Positions 17,828 to 55,179 of a stretch of DNA of 64,000 nt are shown here, one piece after another. The position numbers and the translations under genes are program-made. The stretch's first letter is position 1, and each line of letters opens with the position of its first letter. This stretch comes from an uncultured Chloroflexia bacterium (GTDB lineage Bacteria > Chloroflexota > Limnocylindria > Limnocylindrales > CSP1-4). Location of the stretch: NCBI GenBank assembly GCA_963766685.1, contig CAVYBJ010000017.1, positions 248,107 through 312,106 of the forward strand, read 5' to 3'. Under the pieces are notes generated by a model. That model saw nothing but the letters and a program-made list of their open reading frames with translations, searched no databases and was not told where the DNA came from.

Positions 17828-18762
17828 CAGGCCGCCGTCCCGCGAACGTCGATCGTGCCCTGCCCGAGATCGGCATCACCTTGGGCCAGGAGTGCGCGGA
17901 CCTGGTCGGCGGCGATCCCGAAGGTGGCGGCGTCACTGCCGGAGAGTCGGCGCGGACGCGCGGCCGTGACCGCCACCTCGGCGAGGATGCGACCCGGCCG
18001 GGGCGTCATCACGAGCACGCGATCGGATACGAACACGGCCTCGGAGATGCTGTGCGTGACCAGCACGATGGTGGTGCCCGTGCGACCCCAGAGATCCAAC
18101 AGCTCGGCATCCAGGCGCTCGCGCGTCATGGCGTCGAGGGCGCTGAACGGCTCGTCCAGCAGCAGCACGTCCGGTCTGGGGGCCAGCGCGCGGGCCAGCG
18201 CGGCACGCTGGGCCATGCCGCCGGAAAGCTGATGGGGCGACGCCCCCGCGAACGACTCGAGGTCGGTCAGGGCCAGCACCTCGCGGGCCCGCGCCTCGCG
18301 CTCACCTCGCTCCATACCCGCCAGCTCCAAGGGCAGCGCCACGTTGTCCAGGACCGTTCGCCAGGGCAGCAGGCGGGGTTCCTGGAAGACCAGCCCGACA
18401 CGTGGGTCGACCCCGGTGACGCTGGAGCCGAACGACAGGACCGTGCCGCGATCGGGTGGGAGCAGGCCGCTGATGACGCGAAGGAGCGTGGACTTGCCAC
18501 ACCCGTTGGGGCCCACGATGGCCACCACCTCGCGCTCGCGGACACGCAGGTCCAGCCCGTCAAGGGCAGCCAGGCGAGTGCCCGTGATCTCGAAGCTGCG
18601 GCTGACCCCGCGGAGCTCGATGGCGTCCGTTGATGCGACCTCCCGCCCCGGGCCGTCTGGGGTCGAACGGAGGAGACGGACGCGACCGGACGTGCCGGTT
18701 TGCGCGCCACGAGCGACGGACGCCGACTCGTTCGTCGGCGGTCGCCTCTCTCCTTCTTCCAT
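17827..18762 (-). CDS. ABC transporter ATP-binding protein (NitT/TauT family)
   Basis: GPNGCGKSTLLRVISGL Walker A, LSGGMAQRAALARAL signature, LLLDEPFSALD Walker B. The start is uncertain; the track ORF begins about 77 codons upstream in an Arg-rich stretch. Confidence 0.8.
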   Translation of the reverse strand: MEEGERRPPTNESASVARGAQTGTSGRVRLLRSTPDGPGREVASTDAIELRGVSRSFEITGTRLAALDGLDLRVREREVVAIVGPNGCGKSTLLRVISGLLPPDRGTVLSFGSSVTGVDPRVGLVFQEPRLLPWRTVLDNVALPLELAGMERGEREARAREVLALTDLESFAGASPHQLSGGMAQRAALARALAPRPDVLLLDEPFSALDAMTRERLDAELLDLWGRTGTTIVLVTHSISEAVFVSDRVLVMTPRPGRILAEVAVTAARPRRLSGSDAATFGIAADQVRALLAQGDADLGQGTIDVRGTAA

Positions 18763-19025
18763 CCGGACTGTGACCGTCGGCTCCCTGCGAAGGATCGACC
18801 GCCGTGCTGAGCGGCGGCTCGTGGGCTGGCAGCGAACCATCCTGGCCCGTCTGCCGACCACCGGTAGGGGATTGCACCCGACCCCGAAGGTGAGGCGTGC
18901 TATGGCGAGTTGTGACTCGACTATAGCAGTGGGTCCCGGCAGTCCCGGTGAGGCGATGGTCACCATGCGGAGGGCCACATGGTTCGCGTGCACGTCTTGG
19001 GCTTCTGGGGCATCCTTGCCGCGGA

Positions 19026-22300: not shown

Positions 22301-22336
22301 GGCGGGCATGGTGCCACACGTGGGGCACACAAAGAG

Positions 22337-22373
22337 GAACGAGGGGCGCCTGCCCAATCAGCGCCCCTCGTTC
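22337..22373. other. Perfect 13-bp inverted repeat (GAACGAGGGGCGC - 11 nt - GCGCCCCTCGTTC) in a divergent promoter region
   Basis: Seen directly in the sequence. No T-tract follows, so it is not an obvious intrinsic terminator. Confidence 0.4.
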
Positions 22374-22464
22374 CGGAGGGAGGGAGAGGGAACGATGAAG
22401 GTCTACTTCACGGTTCCGTGGCTGAAGAGTAGTGCTCGTCGATGAAGGCGCCAGACCGTGAACG

Positions 22465-23904
22465 ATGAAGAAACGCACACTCGGTCGATCGCCCAGCGTC
22501 CGATCCCCGGTCCTGGGCCTGTCCGACGGGAGGCTGTCAGAATGCGAGGCGATGGCAGCCAGCGATGATCGCCGCCCGTGCGCGCCAGGTCGATGGAGGC
22601 TCACCGGCCCCGCGGCCGTGGCCCTCGCCCTCGTCCTCACGTCCGCGGCGCCGGCCGGGCGTCGCCATCGGGAAATCAGCGGCCGCTCCCTCTGCAACGC
22701 CGCAGGTCGGAGTCGTCACCGTGCCCGAGGGGCTCGATGCCAGGACGGCCAGGCAGGTGGACCGGGTGGTCGACTCGGTGCAGCCGATCCGAGGCCTGCC
22801 GCCCGCTGACGGCGTGCGGTACCGCATCGTCGACGCCGCGACCCTCGCGGCGGAGATCGAGGCCGACTACCCGCGAGCGAGTCACCGACGCCGACGTGGC
22901 CGCCGAAGACGCGGCCTTCACCCGTCTCGGGCTCATCGGTCCCGAAGACGAACTGGCGGCCTGGCTTCCCTCACTCGGCGCCGGCCAGGCGCTGGCCGCG
23001 TACGATCCCCGATCGGAGACCTTCTCGCTCGTCGGTCCCATCCGCAAGATCAGGGCTCCCGAGTCGGTCGTCGTGGCACACGAGTATGCGCACGCGCTCC
23101 AGGATGCCGCCTTCGACCTTGAGGCCGGGCGCGTGACTGATCTCGACCGGGCGGACGCCGCTCTCGCGCGGCAGGCCTTGGTCGGAGGGTGACGCCACCG
23201 CCGTCATGTATGACTGGGCAGCACGTGAGCTCGACCTGGCGGACCTCCTGGCGGTCTCCGCCCGCGCGTTCACGCGCCAGGACGACAAGGCGCTCCGGAA
23301 GATGCCCGTCCTGCTCCGACGCCAGCTCGAGTTCCCGTACATCGAGGGCTTCGCCTTCGTGAACGCCATTCGAGGTCGAGGGGACTGGGCAGCCGTGGAT
23401 GAGGCATGGCGAACTCGACCGACCTCGACCGAGCAGATCCTCCACCCCGAGCTCTACCCCGATGAAGCGCCGGTCGACATCGAGCTGCCCGACGTGGCAG
23501 CTCGACTCGGCGACGGTTGGTCGGCGACCTACCAACAGACGCTGGGCGAGATGCAGATGGGGGTCTGGTTGGCGGATGGCCAGAAGGCCCGGTCGGTCTA
23601 CCCGGTCCTGCCCGCGCGGCTGCCTCGGGCCGATGCTGCTGCCGGATGGGGAGGCGATCGACTCGTCAGCCTGGATGGGCCGGAGGGTGCCTGGGCCGTC
23701 GCTTGGCAGACCGACTGGGACAGCCGAGCCGATGCCAGGGAGTTCAGGGACGCCGCTCGCGAGGTCGTCAAGGACCTGCCCGGCGCACAGGCCATCTTGA
23801 ATGTCGACCTGGATGGAGGGCTATCCTCTCCAGTACTTGTTCTGCTGGCCGATAGCGAGACGACACTGGAGACCGTTCGGGCGGCGCTGGGGCTTGCGCC
23901 CTGA
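22465..23904 (+). CDS. Secreted or membrane-anchored MA-clan zinc metallopeptidase-like protein (HExxH...EG; Peptidase_MA_2-like). It carries three frame breaks near 22665, 22880 and 23192
   Basis: Signal/TM segment (AAVALALVLTSAAPAG), then VVAHEYAHALQD and a downstream FPYIEGFAFV motif. It aligns with the C-terminal domain of the giant protein at 30800-31997. Confidence 0.6.
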
Positions 23905-23944
23905 CCCTCGGTAGGTGGGCACGTGAAGCGAGGAGCGGCGGACG

Positions 23945-24040
23945 ATGAAGAAACGGACACCTGCGCCGGTACCGGCCCAGGTCGCGTATCCAGGGTGCTC
24001 GCACCCGCAGCCGAAGTCACCTAAGGTCCGCCTGCCATGA
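23945..24040 (+). CDS. 31-codon upstream ORF (MKKRTPAPVPAQVAYPGCSHPQPKSPKVRLP) whose TGA overlaps the ATG of the giant gene
   Basis: An ATGA start/stop overlap, and 5' sequence ACGATGAAGAAACG(G/C)ACAC shared with the start of the 22465 gene. Confidence 0.3.
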   Translation: MKKRTPAPVPAQVAYPGCSHPQPKSPKVRLP

Positions 24041-27000
24041 CTGATCAGCGGCCGGATCCCGGCGACCCTACTGCGTTCTCCGACCCCGTCGATCCCACTG
24101 GAGCATCGCCCGGCCAGGCGGAGGCCGAGGTCAACGCGACCGACCTGTCCGCAGCTAGCGCGACCGCCGACTCCGGCGATCTGGTCACCGGCCCCGACGC
24201 CGAGCCTTCCGAAGCGGACAGCGCGGACCAGGCTGCCGACGCGGGTCTTGGCGCGGCTGCCGTCTCAGCTGCCGCCTGGACGACGACGCCGGTGGCTCCC
24301 GATCCAGAGGCCACAGAGGCCGCCTTGGCCGCGCTGGCAGCGCGGCCCGAGGTGACCCTGGAGCCGCCTGAGGGTCCACCTCCGCAGCCACTCGGCATGG
24401 ACGAAGAGCCACCTGACGAGGGCACGCCCGTGCTGCTCGTGGGCGGCATCCTGGTGGGCGCCTTCATCGTGGCGCTGGCCATCGTCATCCTGCTCTTCCG
24501 GCCCTTCGACTCCGGCTCACCGGACGCGACCCTCTCGCCGTCGCCGGTCATGACGGAGGCCCCAAGCGCGAGCCCCTCGGCTCAAGCCGTCATCGACACC
24601 CCCAACTTCCAGGGCCTCAGCCTTGAGGAGGCCGAGCTCACGGCCGAGGACTATGGGCTCGTCGTCCGCGTCATCTCGGTCGTGAACGACGAAGCCGCGC
24701 CGGGCACCGTTCTGGGTCAGCAACCGCCCCCCGGCGAAGCCGTGCCCGTGGGATCCACCATCGAACTGTCCGTGGCTGTGGCCTCACCCACCGTCGCGGT
24801 GCCCGACATCCTCGACCTGCCCGAGGCGGAGGCCATGAAGGCCCTCGCCGATGCCGGTCTCTCGGCCGGTCTGCGCAGCACGGCCGCCGACCCGACCATC
24901 GTGGCCGGCAACATCGTCAGCTCGAACCCGGTGGCTGCCACGGAGGTGGCTCCCGGCTCGGCCATCAGCTACGTCGTCTCCAGCGGTCCCGCCCTGGTCG
25001 CGGTGCCCGACATCCTCGACCTGCCCGAGGCGGAGGCCATGAAGGCCCTCGCCGATGCCGGTCTCTCGGCCGGTCTGCGCAGCACGGCCGCCGACCCGAC
25101 CATCGTGGCCGGCAACGTCGTCAGCTCGAACCCGGTGGCTGCCACGGAGGTGGCTCCCGGCTCGGCCATCAGCTACGTCGTCTCCAGCGGTCCCGCCCTG
25201 GTCGCGGTGCCCGACATCCTCGACCTGCCCGAGGCGGAGGCCATGAAGGCCCTCGCCGATGCCGGTCTCTCGGCCGGTCTGCGCAGCACGGCCGCCGACC
25301 CGACCATCGTGGCCGGCAACATCGTCAGCTCGAACCCGGTGGCTGCCACGGAGGTGGCTCCCGGCTCGGCCATCAGCTACGTCGTCTCCAGCGGTCCCGC
25401 CCTGGTCGCGGTGCCGTCCTTCGAAGGCCAGTCGCTGACCGACGCCACGACGGCCGCCACCTCGGTCGGCCTGTTCCTCCGCGCGACCTCGATCGAAACC
25501 ACCGAGGCCGAGCCTGAGACCATCCTCGACCAGGATCCATCAACCGGCACCATGGTGGTGCGAGGCTCCACGGTAGATGTGGATGTCGCCGTCGCACCGG
25601 AGACCACCGCCGTGCCCGACCTGGCCGGCTCCGCCGACGAGGCCGCACAGGCCCTCGCCGACGCCCGCCTGGTGGGCGCCCCCTCCGAGGCCTTCAGCGC
25701 CGACGTGGCCGCCGGTGACGTCATGAGCCAGGATCCCGCCGCCGGCACCAGCGTGCCCGTGGGCTCCCGGTCGCCTACGTCGTCTCGCTGGGCGTCGAGA
25801 CCACCGCCGTGCCCGACCTGGCCGGCTCCGCCGACGAGGCCGCGCAGGCCCTCGCCGACGCCCGCCTGGTGGGTGCCCCCTCCGAGGCCTTCAGCGCCGA
25901 CGTGGCCGCCGGTGACGTCATGAGCCAGGATCCCGCCGCCGGCACCAGCGTGCCCGTGGGCTCCTCCGTCAGCCTACGTCGTCTCGCTGGGCGTCGAGAC
26001 CACCGCCGTGCCCGACCTGGCCGGCTCCGCCGACGAGGCCGCGCAGGCCCTCGCCGACGCCCGCCTGGTGGGCGCCCCCTCCGAGGCCTTCAGCGCCGAC
26101 GTGGCCGCCGGTGACGTCATGAGCCAGGATCCCGCCGCCGGCACCAGCGTGCCCGTGGGCTCCTCGGTCGCCTACGTCGTCTCGCTGGGCGTCGAGACCA
26201 CCGCCGTGCCCGACCTGGCCGGCTCCGCCGACGAGGCCGCGCAGGCCCTCGCCGACGCCCGCCTGGTGGGTGCCCCCTCCGAGGCCTTCAGCGCCGACGT
26301 GGCCGCCGGTGACGTCATGAGCCAGGATCCCGCCGCCGGCACCAGCGTGCCCGTGGGCTCCACGGTCAGCCTACGTCGTCTCGCTGGGCGTCGAGACCAC
26401 CGCCGTGCCCGACCTGGCCGGCTCCGCCGACGAGGCCGCGCAGGCCCTCGCCGACGCCCGCCTCGTGGGTGCCCCCTCCGAGGCCTTCAGCGCCGACGTG
26501 GCCGCCGGTGACGTCATGAGCCAGGACCCCGCCGCCGGCACCAGCGTGCCCGTGGGCTCCTCCGTCGCCTACGTCGTCTCGCTGGGCGTCGAGACCACCG
26601 CCGTGCCCGACCTGGCCGGCTCCGCCGACGAGGCCGCGCAGGCCCTCGCCGACGCCCGCCTGGTGGGCGCCCCCTCCGAGGCCTTCAGCGCCGACGTGGC
26701 CGCCGGTGACGTCATGAGCCAGGACCCCGCCGCCGGCACCAGCGTGCCCGTGGGCTCCTCGGTCGCCTACGTCGTCTCGCTGGGCGTCGAGACCACCGCC
26801 GTGCCCGACCTGGCCGGCTCCGCCGACGAGGCCGCGCAGGCCCTCGCCGCCGCCCGCCTGGTGGGTGCCCCCTCCGAGGCCTTCAGCGCCGACGTGGCCG
26901 CCGGTGACGTCATGAGCCAGGACCCCGCCGCCGGCACCAGCGTGCCCGTGGGCTCCCGGTCGCCTACGTCGTCTCGCTGGGCGTCGAGACCACCGCCGTG

Positions 27001-30000
27001 CCCGACCTGGCCGGCTCCGCCGACGAGGCCGCGCAGGCCCTCGCCGACGCCCGCCTGGTGGGTGCCCCCTCCGAGGCCTTCAGCGCCGACGTGGCCGCCG
27101 GTGACGTCATGAGCCAGGACCCCGCCGCCGGCACCAGCGTGCCCGTGGGCTCCACCGTCAGCCTACGTCGTCTCGCTGGGCGTCGAGACCACCGCCGTGC
27201 CCGACCTGGCCGGCTCCGCCGACGAGGCCGCGCAGGCCCTCGACGACGCCCGCCTGGTGGGTGCCCCCTCCGAGGCCTTCAGCGCCGACGTGGCCGCCGG
27301 TGACGTCATGAGCCAGGATCCCGCCGCCGGCACCAGCGTGCCCGTGGGCGCCACCGTCGCCTACGTCGTCTCGCTGGGCGTCGAGACCATCGCCGTGCCC
27401 GACCTGGCCGGCTCCGCCGACGAGGCCGCGCAGGCCCTCGAGGCCGCCCGCCTCGTGGGTGCCCCCTCCGAGGCCTTCAGCGCCGACGTGGCCGCCGGTG
27501 ACGTCGTCAGCCAGGATCCCGCCGCGGGCACCAGCGTGCCCGTGGGCGCCACCGTCAGCCTACGTCGTCTCGCTGGGCGTCGAGACCGTGGCCGTGCCCG
27601 ACCTGGCCGGCTCCGCCGACGAGGCCGCGCAGGCCCTCGAGGCCGCCCGCCTCGTGGGTGCCCCCTCCGAGGCCTTCAGCGCCGACGTGGCCGCCGGTGA
27701 CGTCGTCAGCCAGGATCCCGCCGCGGGCACCAGCGTGCCCGTGGGCGCCACCGTCAGCTACGTCGTCTCGCTGGGCGTCGAGACCGTGGCCGTGCCCGAC
27801 CTGGCCGGCTCCGCCGAGGAGGCCGCGCAGGCCCTCGAGGCCGCCCGCCTCGTGGGTGCCCCCTCCGAGGCCTTCAGCGCCGACGTGGCCGCCGGTGACG
27901 TCGTCAGCCAGGATCCGCCGCGGGCACCAGCGTGCCCGTGGGCGCCACCGTCGGCTACGTCGTCTCCCTGGGCGTCGAGACCGTGGCCGTGCCCGACCTG
28001 GCCGGCTCCGCCGAGGAGGCCGCGCAGGCCCTCGAGGCCGCCCGCCTCGTGGGTGCCCCCTCCGAGGCCTTCAGCGCCGACGTGGCCGCCGGTGACGTCG
28101 TGAGCCAGGATCCCGCCGCGGGCACCAGCGTGCCCGTGGGCGCCACCGTCAGCTACGTCGTCTCGCTGGGCGTCGAGACCGTGGCCGTGCCCGACCTGGC
28201 CGGCTCCGCCGAGGAGGCCGCGCAGGCCCTCGAGGCCGCCCGCCTCGTGGGTGCCCCCTCCGAGGCCTTCAGCGCCGACGTGGCCGCCGGTGACGTCGTG
28301 AGCCAGGATCCCGCCGCGGGCACCAGCGTGCCCGTGGGCGCCACCGTCAGCTACGTCGTCTCGCTGGGCGTCGAGACCGTGGCCGTGCCCGACCTGGCCG
28401 GCTCCGCCGACGAGGCCGCGCAGGCCCTCGAGGCCGCCCGCCTCGTGGGTGCCCCCTCCGAGGCCTTCAGCGCCGACGTGGCCGCCGGTGACGTCGTCAG
28501 CCAGGATCCCGCCGCGGGCACCAGCGTGCCCGTGGGCGCCACCGTCAGCTACGTCGTCTCCCTGGGCGTCGAGACCGTGGCCGTGCCCGACCTGGCCGGC
28601 TCCGCCGAGGAGGCCGCGCAGGCCCTCGAGGCCGCCCGCCTCGTGGGTGCCCCCTCCGAGGCCTTCAGCGCCGACGTGGCCGCCGGTGACGTCGTGAGCC
28701 AGGATACCCGCCGCGGGCACCAGCGTGCCCGTGGGCGCCACCGTCAGCTACGTCGTCTCCCTGGGCGTCGAGACCGTGGCCGTGCCCGACCTGGCCGGCT
28801 CCGCCGAGGAGGCCGCGCAGGCCCTCGAGGCCGCCCGCCTCGTCGGCTGCCCCCTCCGAGGCCTTCAGTGCCGACGTGGCCGCCGGTGACGTCGTCAGCC
28901 AGGATCCCGCCGCGGGCACCAGCGTGCCCGTGGGCGCCACCGTCAGCTACGTCGTCTCCCTGGGCGTCGCACCGACCGTCCTCGTTCCGGACGTCAGTGA
29001 CCTACCGAAAGCGGACGCCATCTCCACCATCGAGGCCACAGGTCTGGTCGTCGGCGAGACTGTGGAGAAGGGCAGTGAGTCTGTCGCCGCGGGCGACGTC
29101 ATCAAGACGGATCCTCCCGCCGACACTGAGCTCCAGCTCGGCGCGTCGGTGGACCTGTATCGTCTCGACTGGCTCGAGCCTCACCCTCGTGCCCGAGGTC
29201 AAGGGCCTCGCCGAGGCCGACGCCAACGCCACCATCGCGGCCGCCGGCCTCGTGGTGGGTGCCACCGAGCAGAAGACCAACGCCACCATCCCCGCCGGCC
29301 AGGCCGTCAAGACCGAGCCCGCCGCGGGCACCGAGGTGCAGCTCGGCTCGGCCGTCACCCTCACCGTCAGCAAGGGTCCCAAGCAGGTCAGCGTGCCCGC
29401 CATCGTGGGGCTCCTGCAGCCCGACGCCAAGGCCGCCATCACAGGCCGCCGAGCTCACGGTCGGCACCAACGGCGTGGTCGAGGACCCCAGCCCCAAGAA
29501 CACCGTCCTCTCCCAGGATCCGCCGGCCGACAGCATCGTGGCCGCCGGCAGCGCGGTGAACTACACCGTGAGCTCCGGTCCGCCGCTCACCCTCGTGCCC
29601 GAGGTCAAGGGCCTCGCCGAGGCCGACGCCAACGCCACCATCGCGGCCGCCGGCCTCGTGGTGGGGGCCACCGAGCAGAAGACCAACGCCACCATCCCCG
29701 CCGGCCAGGCCGTCAAGACCGAGCCCGCCGCGGGCACCGAGGTGCAGCTCGGCTCGGCCGTCACCCTCACCGTCAGCAAGGGTCCCAAGCAGGTCAGCGT
29801 GCCCGCCATCGTGGGGCTCCTGCAGCCCGACGCCAAGGCCGCCATCCAGGCCGCCGAGCTCACGGTCGGCACCAACGGCGTGGTCGAGGACCCCAGCCCC
29901 AAGAACACCGTCCTCTCCCAGGATCCGCCGGCCGACAGCATCGTGGCCGCCGGCAGCGCGGTGGACTACACCGTGAGCTCCGGTCCGCCGCTCACCCTCG

Positions 30001-31997
30001 TGCCCGAGGTCAAGGGCCTCGCCGAGGCCGACGCCAACGCCACCATCGCGGCCGCCGGCCTCGTGGTGGGTGCCACCGAGCAGAAGACCAACGCCACCAT
30101 CCCCGCCGGCCAGGCCGTCAAGACCGAGCCCGCCGCGGGCACCGAGGTGCAGCTCGGCTCGGCCGTCACCCTCACCGTCAGCAAGGGTCCCAAGCAGGTC
30201 AGCGTGCCCGCCATCGTGGGGCTCCTGCAGCCCGACGCCAAGGCCGCCATCCGGCCGCCGAGCTCACGGTCGGCACCAACGGCGTGGTCGAGGACCCCAG
30301 CCCCAAGAACACCGTCCTCTCCCAGGATCCGCCGGCCGACAGCATCGTGGCCGCCGGCAGCGCGGTGGACTACACCGTGAGCTCCGGTCCGCCGCTCACC
30401 CTCGTGCCCGAGGTCAAGGGCCTCGCCGAGGCCGACGCCAACGCCACCATCGCGGCCGCCGGCCTCGTGGTGGGGGCCACCGAGCAGAAGACCAACGCCA
30501 CCATCCCCGCCGGCCAGGCCGTCAAGACCGAGCCCGCCGCGGGCACCGAGGTGCAGCTCGGCTCGGCCGTCACCCTCACCGTCAGCAAGGGTCCCAAGCA
30601 GGTCAGCGTGCCCGCCATCGTGGGGCTCGCGGAACCGGATGCCCTGGCCACACTTGCGGCGGCCGAAGTCACGCCTGGCGCCCGCTCCGAGGCCAACAAC
30701 GACACCATCCCCTTCGGGGTCGTCGCGTCCCAGGACCCGCCCCAAGGCACGGTCGTGAACGCCGGAACCCCCGTCGCCTACACCGTCTCGATCGGCCCGG
30801 CGATCCAGCCGCGCGGTGTCGGGGGGACGCTCCAGGCGCCCGCCGTCATCGGCCAGCTCGACGCGATCGCCGCGACCATCCCGGCCCTGCGCGAGCTCCC
30901 GCCCGCGAACGCGCCATACGACGCGGTCAGCGCCAAGGACCAGCGCTCACTCCTCGCCGACCGGGCCGCGGCGATCCACCCGCCGGCCACCATCGCCGGT
31001 CGAGGAGGCCGCCCTCAAGCGCCTCGGCCTTCTCGCCGGAGGCGACGACCTCCAGAAGCTCCTGCGGCAGCTGTACGGGCAGCCGCTACCGGTGGCCTAC
31101 ACGGGCGGTGTCATCACCGTCGTCGACTCGCTCGAGAGCCTCTCGACGGGCGACCAGGCCCATGCAGCGCGCGAACTGGGCCGCTCGGCCACGGACGTCG
31201 CCTTCGGCCTCGGCCGGCTGCGCGTCGACGACGCCTCCCAGGGCGACCGAGCCCTCGCCGGCGTGGCGCTGGAGCAGGGCGACGGCACCGCCGTCATGCT
31301 CGACTGGCCCGCCGTGAGCGGGGCCACCGACCAGGCTGCCGTGGACGACGTCATCGTCCCTGGCGACGATGGGCTCCTGGCATCCATGCCCCAGCTCCTC
31401 CAGCGCGAGTACTCGCTGCCGTTCCTGGAGGGCCGGCTCTTCGTGGACAGGCTCCGCGAGAGCGGTGGCTGGGGCGCCGTGAACGCTGCCTGGTCCGACC
31501 CGCCGCGATCCACGGAGCAGATCCTCCATCCGAAGCTCTATCCCGGGGAGCAGCCTCGCCCGGTCGACCTGCCAGACCTCCGCGGCGCTCTCGGCGAGGG
31601 CTGGGGTGAGGCCTGGCGCCAGACCATGGGCGAGATGCGCATCGGCGTGTGGCTGGCCGACGGCCAGCCAGGGACCCAGGAGGGCCCGAAGGCACCCGTC
31701 AAGCTGCCGCGTGCCAACGCGGCGGCAGGCTGGGCGGGCGACCGCCTGGTCAGCCTCGACGGTCCCGGCGGCGCCTGGGCGATCGTCTGGCAGACGTCGT
31801 GGGACGGCGCGGAGGACGCGGGCCAGTTCACGGAGGCGGCGGCGGCCGCCATCGCGGACCTGCCCGGCGCCCATGCGGTGACCCCGGTGGATGTCTCCGG
31901 CACGGCTCCCGACCCCGTCCTCGTGCTCCTCACGAGCGATCCGGCCACGCTGGCGACCCTGCAGGCTGGCCTCGGGTTGGCGCCGCCCGCCGGCTGA
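24037..31997 (+). CDS. Giant (about 2,650 aa) single-pass membrane protein: an acidic low-complexity N-terminus, one TM helix, about 30 tandem PASTA domains, and a C-terminal degenerate MA-peptidase-like domain. It contains many single-nt frame breaks
   Basis: TM segment VLLVGGILVGAFIVALAIVILLF. The repeats VPDLAGSADEAAQALADARLVGAPSEAFSADVAAGDVMSQDPAAGTSVPVGSSVAYVVSLG match the PASTA fold pattern. The C-terminal domain aligns with the 22465 peptidase but reads QAHAAREL in place of HEYAH. Confidence 0.7.
24590..30800. repeat. Tandem coding repeat array: one divergent unit, 3 x 204 bp, one divergent unit, about 17 x 198 bp, one divergent unit, about 3.6 x 396 bp, one divergent unit
   Basis: Near-identical periodic units are visible directly. 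There is a graded variation along the array (ALADARL/GDVMSQ early, ALEAARL/GDVVSQ later). Confidence 0.85.
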
Positions 31998-35798: not shown

Positions 35799-36566
35799 AT
35801 GCGAACCCAGAAGCTTTCCATCCTCGGCGCCGCCGTCGCGCTCGCAGCCGTCTCGGTCATCCCGGTCGGCGTTGCCGCCCAGGACGACGCAGCGGAGATG
35901 GCCAAGGTCCGCGTCGGGCACTTCAGCCCGGATGCGCCCGCGGTCGACGTCTACGCCAACGGTGGGGCCATCCTCACCGACGTTCCCTTCGGCGTGCTCT
36001 CGGAGTACCTCGAGGTCCCCGGCGGCACCTACACCATCGAAGTCGTGGCTGCAGGCGCTGATCCTGCTGACGGCGCCGTCATCGGCCCGGTCGATCTCGA
36101 CTTCGCGGCTGGCACCATGACCACCGTGGCCGCGACCAACGCCCTGGCCTCCATCGAGGCGCAGGTCCTGGTCGACGAGCCCAACCCGCAGGACGGCATC
36201 GCCCAGGTGCGCGTCGTCCACTACAGCGCTGACGCGCCGGCCGTGGACGTCGCCCTCGATGGCGGCGACGTGGTCGTCGAGAACCTTGCCTACCCTGCCG
36301 CCGCTGGCTACCTCGACCTGCCCGAGGGCGAGTACGACCTCGAGATCCGCCCGACCGGCACGACCGACGTCGCCTTCGACATCGATCCGCTGGCGCTGGC
36401 AGGTGGCAACAGCTTCACGGTCTTCGCCATCGGCTCCCTGGCTGACGGCTCCTTCACGGTCCTGCCCGCGGTCGATGCCAGCCTCATGGCTGACGACGAC
36501 ATGACGGCCGAGGAGTCCATGGCCGCCGAGGACGAGGCCATGGCCGAGGAGTCCCCCGAGGCCTAA
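35799..36566 (+). CDS. Secreted DUF4397 domain protein
   Basis: Signal peptide, then repeated VRVGHFSPDAPAVDVYANG / VRVVHYSADAPAVDVALDG motifs. A GGAAAGGAA ribosome-binding site precedes the ATG. Confidence 0.75.
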   Translation: MRTQKLSILGAAVALAAVSVIPVGVAAQDDAAEMAKVRVGHFSPDAPAVDVYANGGAILTDVPFGVLSEYLEVPGGTYTIEVVAAGADPADGAVIGPVDLDFAAGTMTTVAATNALASIEAQVLVDEPNPQDGIAQVRVVHYSADAPAVDVALDGGDVVVENLAYPAAAGYLDLPEGEYDLEIRPTGTTDVAFDIDPLALAGGNSFTVFAIGSLADGSFTVLPAVDASLMADDDMTAEESMAAEDEAMAEESPEA

Positions 36567-36664
36567 GCCCGACACCTTCCCCTGGGCCGGCAGTGTGCTT
36601 CCCCTTCGCACTGCCGGCCTACCCCACCCCGCTGACCCGAACGACCCGAAAGGAAGTCACCCAG

Positions 36665-37976
36665 ATGTCTCAACCAACCACCCGAGGGCGCAAGATGGCG
36701 CTCCTTGGCATGGCCGCCGCCCTCTCGGCCGCAGCGGTCGTCCCGACCGCCGCCGCTGCCCAGGACGAGATGGCCGCTGAGATGGCCAAGGTCCGCGTCC
36801 TCCACGGCGCCGGCGACGCCCCGGCCGTCGATGTCTACGCCGGCGGCAACCTGGTCGTCGAGGGCCTCGAGTACGCCAAGCATCACGGACTACCTCGAGG
36901 TCCCCGGTGGCGAGTACCAGATCCAGGTCGTGCCCAGCGGCGCCACCCTGGAGGAAGGCCCCGTCGTCATCGACGCACCCCTGACCTTCGACGCCGGCAC
37001 CATGACCACGGTCGCGGCGACCGGCAGCCTGGCCGCCGGCATCATCCCCCAGGTCCTGGCCGACGCCCCGGCGCCCACCGCTGATGGCTCGCAGGTCCGC
37101 GTCGTCCACTTCAGCTTCGACGCCCCGGCCGTGGACGTCGCTCCCGACGGCGGCGACGCGCTCATCACCGACCTGGCCTTCCCGAACAACACCGGCTACG
37201 TCGACCTGCCGGCCGGCGCCTACGACCTCGAGATCCGCGCCGCGGGCACGGACACCGTGGCCTTCGACATCCCCGAGGTCACGCTTCGACGCCGGGCACC
37301 AGCTACTCCGTGTTCGCCGTCGGCGGGCTGGAGGACGGCAGCTTCACGGTCGTGCCGGCCGTCGATGCGGCCCTGGCCGGCGTGCGTGTCGGTCACTTCT
37401 CGGCCGATGCCCCCAACGTCGACGTCTACGCCAATGGCAGCGCCATCCTGACCGACGTGCCCTTCGGCGCCATCTCCGACTATCTCTTCGTGCCGGCTGG
37501 CACGTACCAGATCCAGGTCGTGCCCGCGGGCGCATCCCTCGAGGAGGGCCCCGTGGTCATCGATGCCCCGCTCACCTTCGAGGGCGGCACGCTGACGACC
37601 GTGGCAGCCACCAATGAGCTCGCCAACATCACCCCGGTCGTCCTCAAGGACAAGCCGGCTCCGGTCGCCGATGAGGCCCAGATCCGCGTCGTGCACCTGA
37701 GCGCCGATGCGCCCAAGGTCGACGTGGCCGCTGACGGCAGCAGCGTCAAGGACGCCATCTTCAAGGGACCTCAAGTACGGCAAGGCCAAGGGCTACGCCA
37801 CCGTTCCCGCCGGCGAGTACGACCTTGAGGTCCGTCCCGCGGGCGAGAAGAAGGCCGCCTTCGACATCGACCCCCTGATGCTCGAGGCGGGCAAGTCCTA
37901 CAGCGCCATGGCCATCGGCCAGCTCGGCGGTGGCTCGTTCAACGTCATCCTCGTCGAGGATGCCGCGGTCAACTAG
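36665..37976 (+). CDS. Secreted DUF4397 domain protein with three or four DUF4397 repeats; 3-4 frame breaks
   Basis: Signal peptide and the same repeat motifs (VRVLHGAGDAPAVDVYAGG, VRVVHFSFDAPAVDVAPDG, VRVGHFSADAPNVDVYANG, IRVVHLSADAPKVDVAADG), spread across three reading frames. Confidence 0.6.
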
Positions 37977-38073
37977 ACCATCCGCGGAGACTCACGGGGA
38001 CCGGTGTCCATCGGTCCCCCCTCCGCTCCCTCACCCCTCTGACATCCGACACGAAGGAAGGAAGGAACCCCTG

Positions 38074-55101: not shown

Positions 55102-55179
55102 GCCCCCATCGTCTAGAGGCCCAGGACGCCACCCTTTCAAGGTGGAGATCGACCGGTTCGAATCCGGTTGGGGGTACCA
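55102..55179 (+). tRNA. tRNA-Glu (anticodon TTC)
   Basis: Cloverleaf: acceptor stem GCCCCCA/TGGGGGT with G1-U72, D arm TCTAGAGGCCCAGGAC, anticodon stem-loop CCACC-CTTTCAA-GGTGG, T arm GGTTCGAATCC, and an encoded CCA. Confidence 0.8.

Follow-up and report, generated by a model that had tools for sequence, protein, structure and literature searches.

A tandem pair of DUF8575 genes in an uncultured Limnocylindria-type Chloroflexota bacterium: a putative zinc peptidase and a PASTA-repeat giant with a pseudo-peptidase domain

Why would a bacterium keep a putative zinc peptidase directly beside a giant protein that ends in a copy of the same domain without its metal ligands? The question is raised by two neighbouring genes on the plus strand (22465-31997) of contig CAVYBJ010000017.1 from an uncultured Limnocylindria-type Chloroflexota bacterium. 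The window is the whole stretch of this contig that was analysed, 64,000 nucleotides with a G+C content of about 70%. Gene 1 encodes a stand-alone DUF8575 protein. The second gene, the giant gene, encodes an array of PASTA domains followed by a DUF8575 paralogue, referred to here as the tip domain. The original prediction placed tandem paralogues at this position, and BLASTP of the corrected gene 1 protein against the last 441 amino acids of the giant protein bears this out (44% identity over 387 amino acids, E = 5e-91). The reading favoured here, held as a whole with moderate confidence, is that a tandem duplicate pair has subfunctionalised. The architecture and evolutionary history of the pair can be regarded as established with high confidence. 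The features that carry this reading are the following, where L005 and L007 are related loci and dN/dS is the ratio of nonsynonymous to synonymous substitution rates.

22552..23904, plus strand: gene 1, encoding a stand-alone DUF8575 protein that is secreted or anchored in the membrane, a zincin-like putative metallopeptidase (frame reconstruction, homologues)
23079..23093, plus strand: HEYAH, putative zinc-binding/catalytic motif of gene 1 (homologue invariance, model)
23185..23208, plus strand: E-GDATAVM of gene 1, a conserved motif whose Glu (codon 23185-23187 once the frame is corrected) is the putative third zinc ligand (homologue invariance)
24037..31997, plus strand: giant gene, about 2,651 amino acids after correction (reconstruction; intact orthologous open reading frames in L005 and L007)
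30794..31994, plus strand: C-terminal DUF8575 pseudo-peptidase domain of the giant gene, with one frameshift near 30998 (BLASTP, model, dN/dS)
31170..31184, plus strand: RELGR in place of HExxH, both His changed to Arg and the catalytic Glu kept (alignment)
31272..31298, plus strand: E-Q-GDGTAVM, with Gln (31275-31277) in place of the third-ligand Glu (alignment)

Matching peptides are present in the two copies. GDATAVM (23188-23208) in gene 1 corresponds to EQGDGTAVM (31272-31298) in the giant gene, and STEQILHP is found in both (23425-23448 and 31509-31532). The giant copy had been described as having lost its second His. This is correct and understates the change, as the first His and the Glu ligand are lost as well. 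All three zinc ligands of the tip domain are replaced (H to R, H to R, and E to Q), and the general-base Glu is retained. Alignment of the corrected proteins confirms that the giant protein does not retain HExxH; with RELGR and Gln, its C-terminus lacks the gluzincin motif. Since the canonical ligands are gone, the tip domain cannot bind zinc through them and would therefore not be a peptidase.

These replacements are not confined to the window. A scan that covered one genome per species found 590 DUF8575 relatives. R-E-[FL]-[GD]-R followed by QGDGT is present in about 40 of the 47 PASTA-fused sequences that cover the site, which are 50-70% identical to the window. Arg occupies the two former His positions in 100% and 94% of 35 PASTA-clade sequences, and the active clade has His in 100%. 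Both clades conserve about 80 positions at more than 90%, among them STEQILHPxxYP, GWGGDR, and WQxxWD. Twenty fixed replacements are specific to the pseudo clade, some of them outside the metal site. The structural model of the orthologue P0124 (model confidence, pLDDT, 94.6) has the same order of secondary structure elements as the active paralogue. Across seven genomes the tip domain shows 57-68% identity and gene 1 shows 60-75%, so the tip has diverged only slightly faster, and its dN/dS against L005 is 0.08. Metal residues have been lost, their replacements are conserved across the PASTA-fused clade, and purifying selection is strong. The tip domain is thus a maintained pseudo-enzyme and not a decaying copy.

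Both genes are interrupted by frame changes in the window sequence. The frame path was followed through periodicity of G+C at third codon positions (GC3) and a codon-usage Viterbi path in which single-base skips were allowed. Coding-frame GC3 periodicity is 0.9-1.0 throughout both genes and tracks each frame change, and no in-frame stop is left in either gene once the single-base corrections are applied. Gene 1 was originally taken to be intact, which does not hold for the window sequence. Three single-base insertions (near 22655, 22870, and 23176) have to be removed to give a protein of 449 amino acids. Each is one extra C in a C run beside a single-nucleotide difference from the intact L005 orthologue. 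The giant gene requires 13 corrections (nine insertions and four deletions) to give about 2,651 amino acids.

~25768, 25971, 26368, 26957, 27160, 27557, 27915, 28709, 28836, 29158, 29441, 30252, and 30998, plus strand: giant-gene indels (Viterbi reconstruction and sequence contexts)

Six of these 13 indels recur at sites where adjoining repeat units differ. Four are the hybrid GTCAGCCTAC of GTCGCCTAC and GTCAGCTAC, and two are GGCTCCTCGG changed to GGCTCC-CGG. Such recurrent hybrids are expected when a consensus caller piles up reads that stem from different copies of the repeat or from different strains. Among the relatives found, the closest is L005 (metagenome-assembled genome (MAG) MFD09848.bin.1.119, about 92% DNA identity), in which both genes are intact, with 475 open codons for gene 1 and 2,621 for the giant gene (a protein of 2,617 amino acids). 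MFD names denote Nanopore MAGs of the Microflora Danica project. The giant gene is also intact in L007, with an open frame of 3,226 codons. In L001, L002, and L003, which are contig_N-style assemblies of the same ENA series, the genes are broken at other places than in the window. Given the C-run contexts, the repeat-hybrid sites, the different breaks in relatives, and the intact genes of L005 and L007, the 16 frameshifts most likely reflect errors in the consensus of a metagenome assembled from long reads.

A tandem cluster of DUF4397 paralogues lies at 35799-38026. Compared with the L002 orthologue, the coding sequence of its middle member (about 36665-37704) is spread across three frames, and indels in this assembly therefore appear to concentrate in paralogous or variable surface-protein genes. 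A practical caution follows for protein catalogues, as consensus indels in long-read MAGs shred repetitive or variable surface genes, which are then lost from them.

Gene 1 has 1,791 homologues, and its orthologues carry PF26686 (DUF8575). Its start is most likely the ATG at 22552 (MAASD...), as in the orthologue P0002. The N-terminal hydrophobic segment predicts that the protein is exported.

22600..22659, plus strand: N-terminal hydrophobic segment LTGPAAVALALVLTSAAPAG of gene 1, putative signal peptide or signal anchor (Kyte-Doolittle)

The highest Kyte-Doolittle window of the protein is 2.07 (residues 21-39), and the equivalent segment of distant orthologues ends with a lipobox-like Cys. 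HEY[GADE]H is invariant in 120 of 120 close homologues. The Glu of EGDATAVM (E211), 30 residues past the second His, is invariant in the same 120, and HExxH...EGD is kept in all of the roughly 70 more distant loci. In the AlphaFold model of P0002 (69% identical, pLDDT 87.4), HExxH lies on a helix at 167-186 and the Glu lies on the next long helix at 199-224, with a small sheet before them. Gene 1 thus shows the gluzincin (MA(E)-type) arrangement of HExxH on a helix and Glu on the following helix. The dN/dS of its segments against L005 is 0.18-0.38. From motif and model, gene 1 is likely to be an active zinc peptidase.

Both copies belong to an uncharacterised zincin-like family. PF26686 comes as a precomputed annotation with the orthologue P0001 (93% identical) and with the orthologues fused to PASTA. 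A Pfam-A search of gene 1 and of the giant C-terminal domain gave no matches with a Pfam copy that does not contain PF26686. Both copies match NCBIfam NF038145 (Hvo_1808 family surface protein) below its cut-off of 200 bits, gene 1 with 150 bits (E = 1e-43) and the giant C-terminus with 84 bits (E = 1e-23). The best and only significant PDB match of the P0002 model is 3cmn (Foldseek probability 1.0, E = 8.6e-4), with 20% identity over 287 columns, TM-scores of 0.34/0.47, and a root-mean-square deviation of 7.9 Å. It is also the sole PDB match by sequence profile, across the Glu-helix region. We take 3cmn to be a member of Pfam Zincin_2 in the Peptidase_MA clan. Weak Pfam Zn_peptidase_2 matches occur at the HExxH region in 29 of 51 family members, and none of the curated peptidase families is matched by the DUF8575 domain. 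The C-terminal third of the domain, an alpha/beta subdomain, weakly resembles PknH/TiME sensor domains (probability 0.8-0.9, E 0.02-0.3). Based on the invariance of the motif, the model with its match to 3cmn, and the Zn_peptidase_2 matches, assignment of the domain to the zincins of the MA clan appears reasonable.

The giant protein consists of an N-terminal region, a single transmembrane helix, 31 PASTA domains, and the tip domain.

24430..24498, plus strand: single transmembrane helix VLLVGGILVGAFIVALAIVILLF (hydropathy 3.0, residues 133-153)
24598..30793, plus strand: array of 31 PASTA domains (Pfam PF03793, Tandem Repeats Finder)

The N-terminal region comprises about 130 amino acids, is acidic and Ala/Pro-rich, and is without a recognised Pfam domain. 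This cytoplasmic part (24037-24430) is of low complexity, and a block, AAWTTTPVAPDPEATEAALAALAA.PEVTLEP, stands right before the transmembrane helix in the window, L005, and L007. PF03793 matches 31 stretches with 961 bits against a cut-off of 23.2 (E = 1e-297). A Pfam scan of the 2,651-amino-acid reconstruction and of the intact L005 orthologue returned PASTA only, with no kinase or transpeptidase domain. Tandem Repeats Finder reports units of 204 bp (3.1 copies, 24793-25415), 198 bp (17 copies, 25600-28969), and 405 bp (3.6 copies, 29180-30628), and these DNA units are 98-99% identical. There are 31 PASTA domains in the window and 30 in L005, and the frame of L007 has 3,226 codons. Variation in copy number together with near-identical units implies ongoing expansion, contraction, or gene conversion. 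To our knowledge this is the longest PASTA array, as judged against the 2-4 repeats of characterised proteins and not from a database survey. A modelled PASTA pair superposes on PASTA 1-2 of PknB (5e10) with a TMt of 0.75 and 33% identity, in keeping with the beta3-alpha fold of PASTA. In characterised PASTA proteins 2-4 repeats are arranged linearly, and these proteins bind fragments of peptidoglycan (PMC6213207). By analogy with the linear arrangement in PknB, the 31 domains could form a rod on the order of 100 nm in length.

Long minus-strand open reading frames over the array (e.g., 27758-28741; up to 327 amino acids) were considered and set aside as frame shadows of the GC-rich repeats rather than genes. 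Antisense open reading frames over the array have been called as genes in some related contigs.

The 590 relatives come overwhelmingly from Chloroflexota MAGs (Limnocylindria, Anaerolineae, and Dehalococcoidia), and a small number belong to Myxococcota, Acidobacteriota, and Sumerlaeota. Comparison of gene neighbourhoods found both genes together in L001-L005, L007, L009, and L012, and fragments of the pair in L006 and L011. The pair always lies between Lactamase_B_3 and ArgRS, with the dead PASTA-fused copy between the live copy and ArgRS. All loci that have a live copy at least 61% identical to P0002 and enough downstream DNA carry the PASTA-fused copy, and no genome with a dead copy and without a live one was found among the loci compared. 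About 45 more distant loci have Lactamase_B_3, a single HExxH DUF8575 gene, and ArgRS, with no PASTA gene. From these comparisons, the ancestral locus is Lactamase_B_3, a single DUF8575, and ArgRS, and the pair arose inside this locus, with the second, PASTA-fused copy found in one Limnocylindria-like lineage. The claim that a module was duplicated and that one copy became a pseudo-peptidase fused to a PASTA array is upheld by the 31 PASTA domains, the conserved loss of ligands, and the single-copy ancestral loci.

A few short-read contig ends (P0173 and P0190) have PASTA fused to a still-active HEY[DG]H domain beside ArgRS. These PASTA-fused active forms in the same position suggest an order of duplication, PASTA fusion, and then loss of ligands. 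A neighbour-joining tree with midpoint rooting places the dead clade on a long stem branch and leaves its relation to the PASTA-fused active sequences P0170, P0171, P0173, and P0190 unsettled. Synteny next to ArgRS suggests that the PASTA-fused active and dead copies are positional orthologues.

The two genes also share upstream sequence, as had been noticed in the original prediction.

22462..22475, plus strand: shared motif copy 1, ACGATGAAGAAACG (exact 14-mer, 77-90 nucleotides upstream of the gene 1 start)
23942..23955, plus strand: shared motif copy 2, ACGATGAAGAAACG (exact 14-mer upstream of the giant gene)
23945..24040, plus strand: upstream open reading frame (uORF) of 31 codons, MKKRT...KVRLP-TGA, whose TGA overlaps the giant ATG at 24037 (ATGA)

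These are the only two exact copies in the 64 kb window, where none would be expected by chance. The core G[AG]TGAAGAAAC[GT] is found upstream of both genes in eight of eight paired loci and upstream of several ancestral-type single-copy genes, so that the motif was duplicated together with the gene. Copy 2 lies within a block of about 31 nucleotides, GTGAAGCGAGGAGCGGCGGACGATGAAGAA, that is identical across the seven divergent loci compared. The further claim, that both proteins begin with a common MKKRT leader, does not stand. As a leader or signal peptide of gene 1, MKKRT was rejected because neither frame nor length is conserved and most distant loci lack an ATG there. The MKKRT codons are out of frame with the gene 1 start in L002 and L005. 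In many loci the ATG of the motif upstream of gene 1 is replaced by GTG or missing altogether (GATTAAGAAAG), and the open reading frame ranges from 11 to more than 200 codons. Before the giant gene, MKKRT instead begins the uORF.

The uORF is found only before the giant gene, and its length of 31 codons, ATG start, and ATGA overlap are the same in nine of nine loci. An invariant GAGGAG stands nine nucleotides upstream. Coding selection on the peptide was rejected for the middle part, where variable sites are equally spread over the codon positions (14/17/15). It is therefore the length, ends, and overlap that are conserved and not the peptide sequence, and this is compatible with translational coupling or with a spacing-constrained 5' untranslated region. 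A Pro-stop ending, which the uORF has, is known to slow termination. The uORF may serve in translational coupling or as a regulatory leader. A predicted long-range stem enclosing the uORF showed no covariation, Rfam found no known RNA in either upstream region (at gathering thresholds or at E up to 10), and a sigma-70 scan found no promoter-like site. The terminator scan gave two matches only, 23814-23832 on the plus strand inside the end of gene 1 and 23973-23956 on the minus strand, with no plus-strand stop between the genes. As both genes keep the duplicated upstream motif, they are probably expressed together.

A separate conserved element was observed nearby. Between Lactamase_B_3 and DUF8575 lies a non-coding stretch of about 140 nucleotides (22335-22475) that is strongly conserved in 38 of the 84 loci fetched. 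It contains a hairpin (22337-22371) of 13 base pairs with an invariant loop, GCCTGCCCAATYRGC on the plus strand, and compensatory double changes at seven of the 13 pairs among 35 sequences. In the minus-strand reading the stem shows no broken cells and 26 G·U cells, and in the plus-strand reading it shows 12 A·C mismatch cells. The minus strand also carries a CCCUCUCCCUCCCUCC tract before the hairpin and a U-rich tail after it, and there is no Rfam match. The element always has the same orientation with respect to DUF8575, also in L032 and L041, in which Lactamase_B_3 is inverted. It looks like a minus-strand intrinsic terminator, leader, or small RNA, and is possibly a new structured RNA. Elsewhere in the window, an FMN riboswitch (RF00050) scores 74.9 bits, above its gathering score, at 18747-18895 on the minus strand, and Rfam places a tRNA gene at 55102-55176 on the plus strand.

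What could the pair do? The product of gene 1 would be a Sec-exported, probably zinc-dependent peptidase of the gluzincin type. The giant protein would be a bitopic membrane protein with an extracellular rod of 31 PASTA domains and a DUF8575 domain at its tip, the stalk displaying this domain away from the membrane. The tip domain is most likely a non-catalytic binding module, which would bind either the kind of envelope ligand that is the substrate of the active paralogue or this paralogue as such. That it is a binding module of some kind is reasonably favoured, given the conserved replacement of the ligands and a conserved cleft, with the fold and about 80 family-invariant positions kept. 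An enzyme/regulator pair at the cell wall, which the original prediction put forward, would be plausible, but that the tip domain cooperates with the adjoining enzyme there or acts on it is a tentative and somewhat doubtful suggestion. Association of the giant protein with the cell wall through PASTA would follow by analogy from the peptidoglycan-binding role of PASTA in kinases and penicillin-binding proteins (PBPs) (PMC6213207). A more elaborate version is quite unlikely. Here the Arg-Glu-x-x-Arg...Gln site would be a re-engineered, metal-free receptor pocket on a rod of about 100 nm, gating or recruiting the active paralogue under termination-reinitiation control by the uORF. Two guanidinium groups in the place of Zn2+ could then hold an anionic envelope ligand, for example a stem-peptide carboxylate or a phosphate. 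If true, monoderm-like Chloroflexota would have an envelope-remodelling module of a new kind.

Several points weigh against subfunctionalisation of the pair. Descent from a tandem duplication may be enough to account for both the adjacency and the shared motif. Peptidoglycan binding by these PASTA domains is suggested only by analogy, and an interaction of the two proteins only by co-occurrence and the shared upstream motif. The model fits a solved zincin only modestly (TM-scores of 0.34/0.47), and the NCBIfam scores are under the cut-off. A literature search found no paper that mentions DUF8575 and no biochemistry for any of its members. Finally, the frameshifts are clustered, with three in the 1.35 kb of gene 1, 13 in the 8 kb of the giant gene, and others in the DUF4397 paralogues, and six other open reading frames tested in the flanking 11 kb or so each align to L005 in a single frame. 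This last pattern is what a decaying pseudogene pair in this organism, with 16 real mutations, would give. Such decay is nevertheless improbable. Single-base removal leaves no in-frame stops, GC3 periodicity persists throughout, and dN/dS is 0.08-0.38. The gene 1 events are all of one type, an extra C in a C run, and six of the 13 array indels are recurrent repeat-variant hybrids typical of pile-up consensus errors. Moreover, L001, L002, and L003 are broken elsewhere, and L005 and L007 are intact.

The main rival is that the two proteins have independent functions. The giant would then be a surface fibril, adhesin, or envelope spacer whose dead tip has acquired an unrelated binding specificity, gene 1 would be a housekeeping exopeptidase, and the two would be neighbours only through tandem duplication in a locus of frozen synteny. 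The order of Lactamase_B_3, DUF8575, and ArgRS is kept even in distant genomes, so gene order is stable here regardless of function. The long branch of the pseudo clade and its 20 clade-specific fixed replacements, including those outside the metal site, would suit a tip with its own role, and near-identical, copy-number-variable PASTA repeats (2,617 to about 3,222 amino acids) are typical of variable surface proteins. Against this, the dead copy keeps about 80 family-invariant positions, including motifs around the cleft, the duplicated upstream motif is invariant before the giant gene in nine loci, and no genome was found with the dead copy and without the live one. Independence is a possible account and an unlikely one. 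It is far less probable that the tip domain is still an enzyme, working without a metal or with alternative ligands. In favour of this, it keeps the general-base Glu of HExxH as well as the conserved His/Glu of STEQILHP, but Arg, Arg, and Gln do not normally coordinate zinc, and the positions conserved specifically in this clade include no new His or Cys motif. Subfunctionalisation of a duplicated pair, with one copy retained as a putative peptidase and the other as a pseudo-enzyme, therefore remains the preferred reading.

The pair can be compared with several known systems. Both gene 1 and the C-terminus of the giant show homology to the Hvo_1808/DUF8575 family and resemble Hvo_1808 in being exported and cell-associated. 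Hvo_1808 of Haloferax volcanii differs in being archaeal, and studies of it have been limited to secretion and processing and describe a cell-associated protein with a Sec lipobox that is processed (PMC2945643). A literature search found no description of a PASTA-fused DUF8575 subclade without metal ligands. A putative hydrolase of Chloroflexus aurantiacus, 3cmn, has a zincin-like HExxH fold and is the best structural match of the gene 1 orthologue model, but the superposition is loose, the C-terminal alpha/beta subdomain is missing from 3cmn, and no activity has been assigned to it. The kinases PknB, PrkC, and StkP and class B PBPs such as PBP2x are likewise bitopic with extracellular PASTA repeats. 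The giant protein differs from these in having neither a kinase nor a transpeptidase domain, 31 repeats instead of 2-4, and a pseudo-peptidase at its C-terminus (PMC6213207).

Dead paralogues of envelope peptidases are already known as LytM factors. What is different here is another family, the rebuilding of the site as Arg/Arg/Gln, a very long PASTA array, and a live paralogue that adjoins it. EnvC and NlpD are catalytically dead LytM (M23) factors that activate cell-wall amidases, and such dead paralogues of envelope hydrolases are key regulators in model bacteria. The tip domain resembles them as a metallopeptidase fold that has lost its zinc ligands and is maintained by selection, and EnvC and NlpD work in the envelope beside active hydrolases. 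Their fold and family are unrelated to DUF8575, however, and they activate non-homologous amidases, whereas the neighbour here is the putatively active paralogue. The conserved Arg/Arg/Gln set under strong purifying selection, together with the very long PASTA array and the active paralogue next door, makes this a clean case for study and a natural experiment in which a metallopeptidase site may be converting into a binding site. DUF8575 thereby gains its first testable functional hypothesis. The dead-paralogue logic of EnvC and NlpD may have arisen independently in a zincin family that has not been studied, in a widespread uncultured lineage of soil and freshwater.

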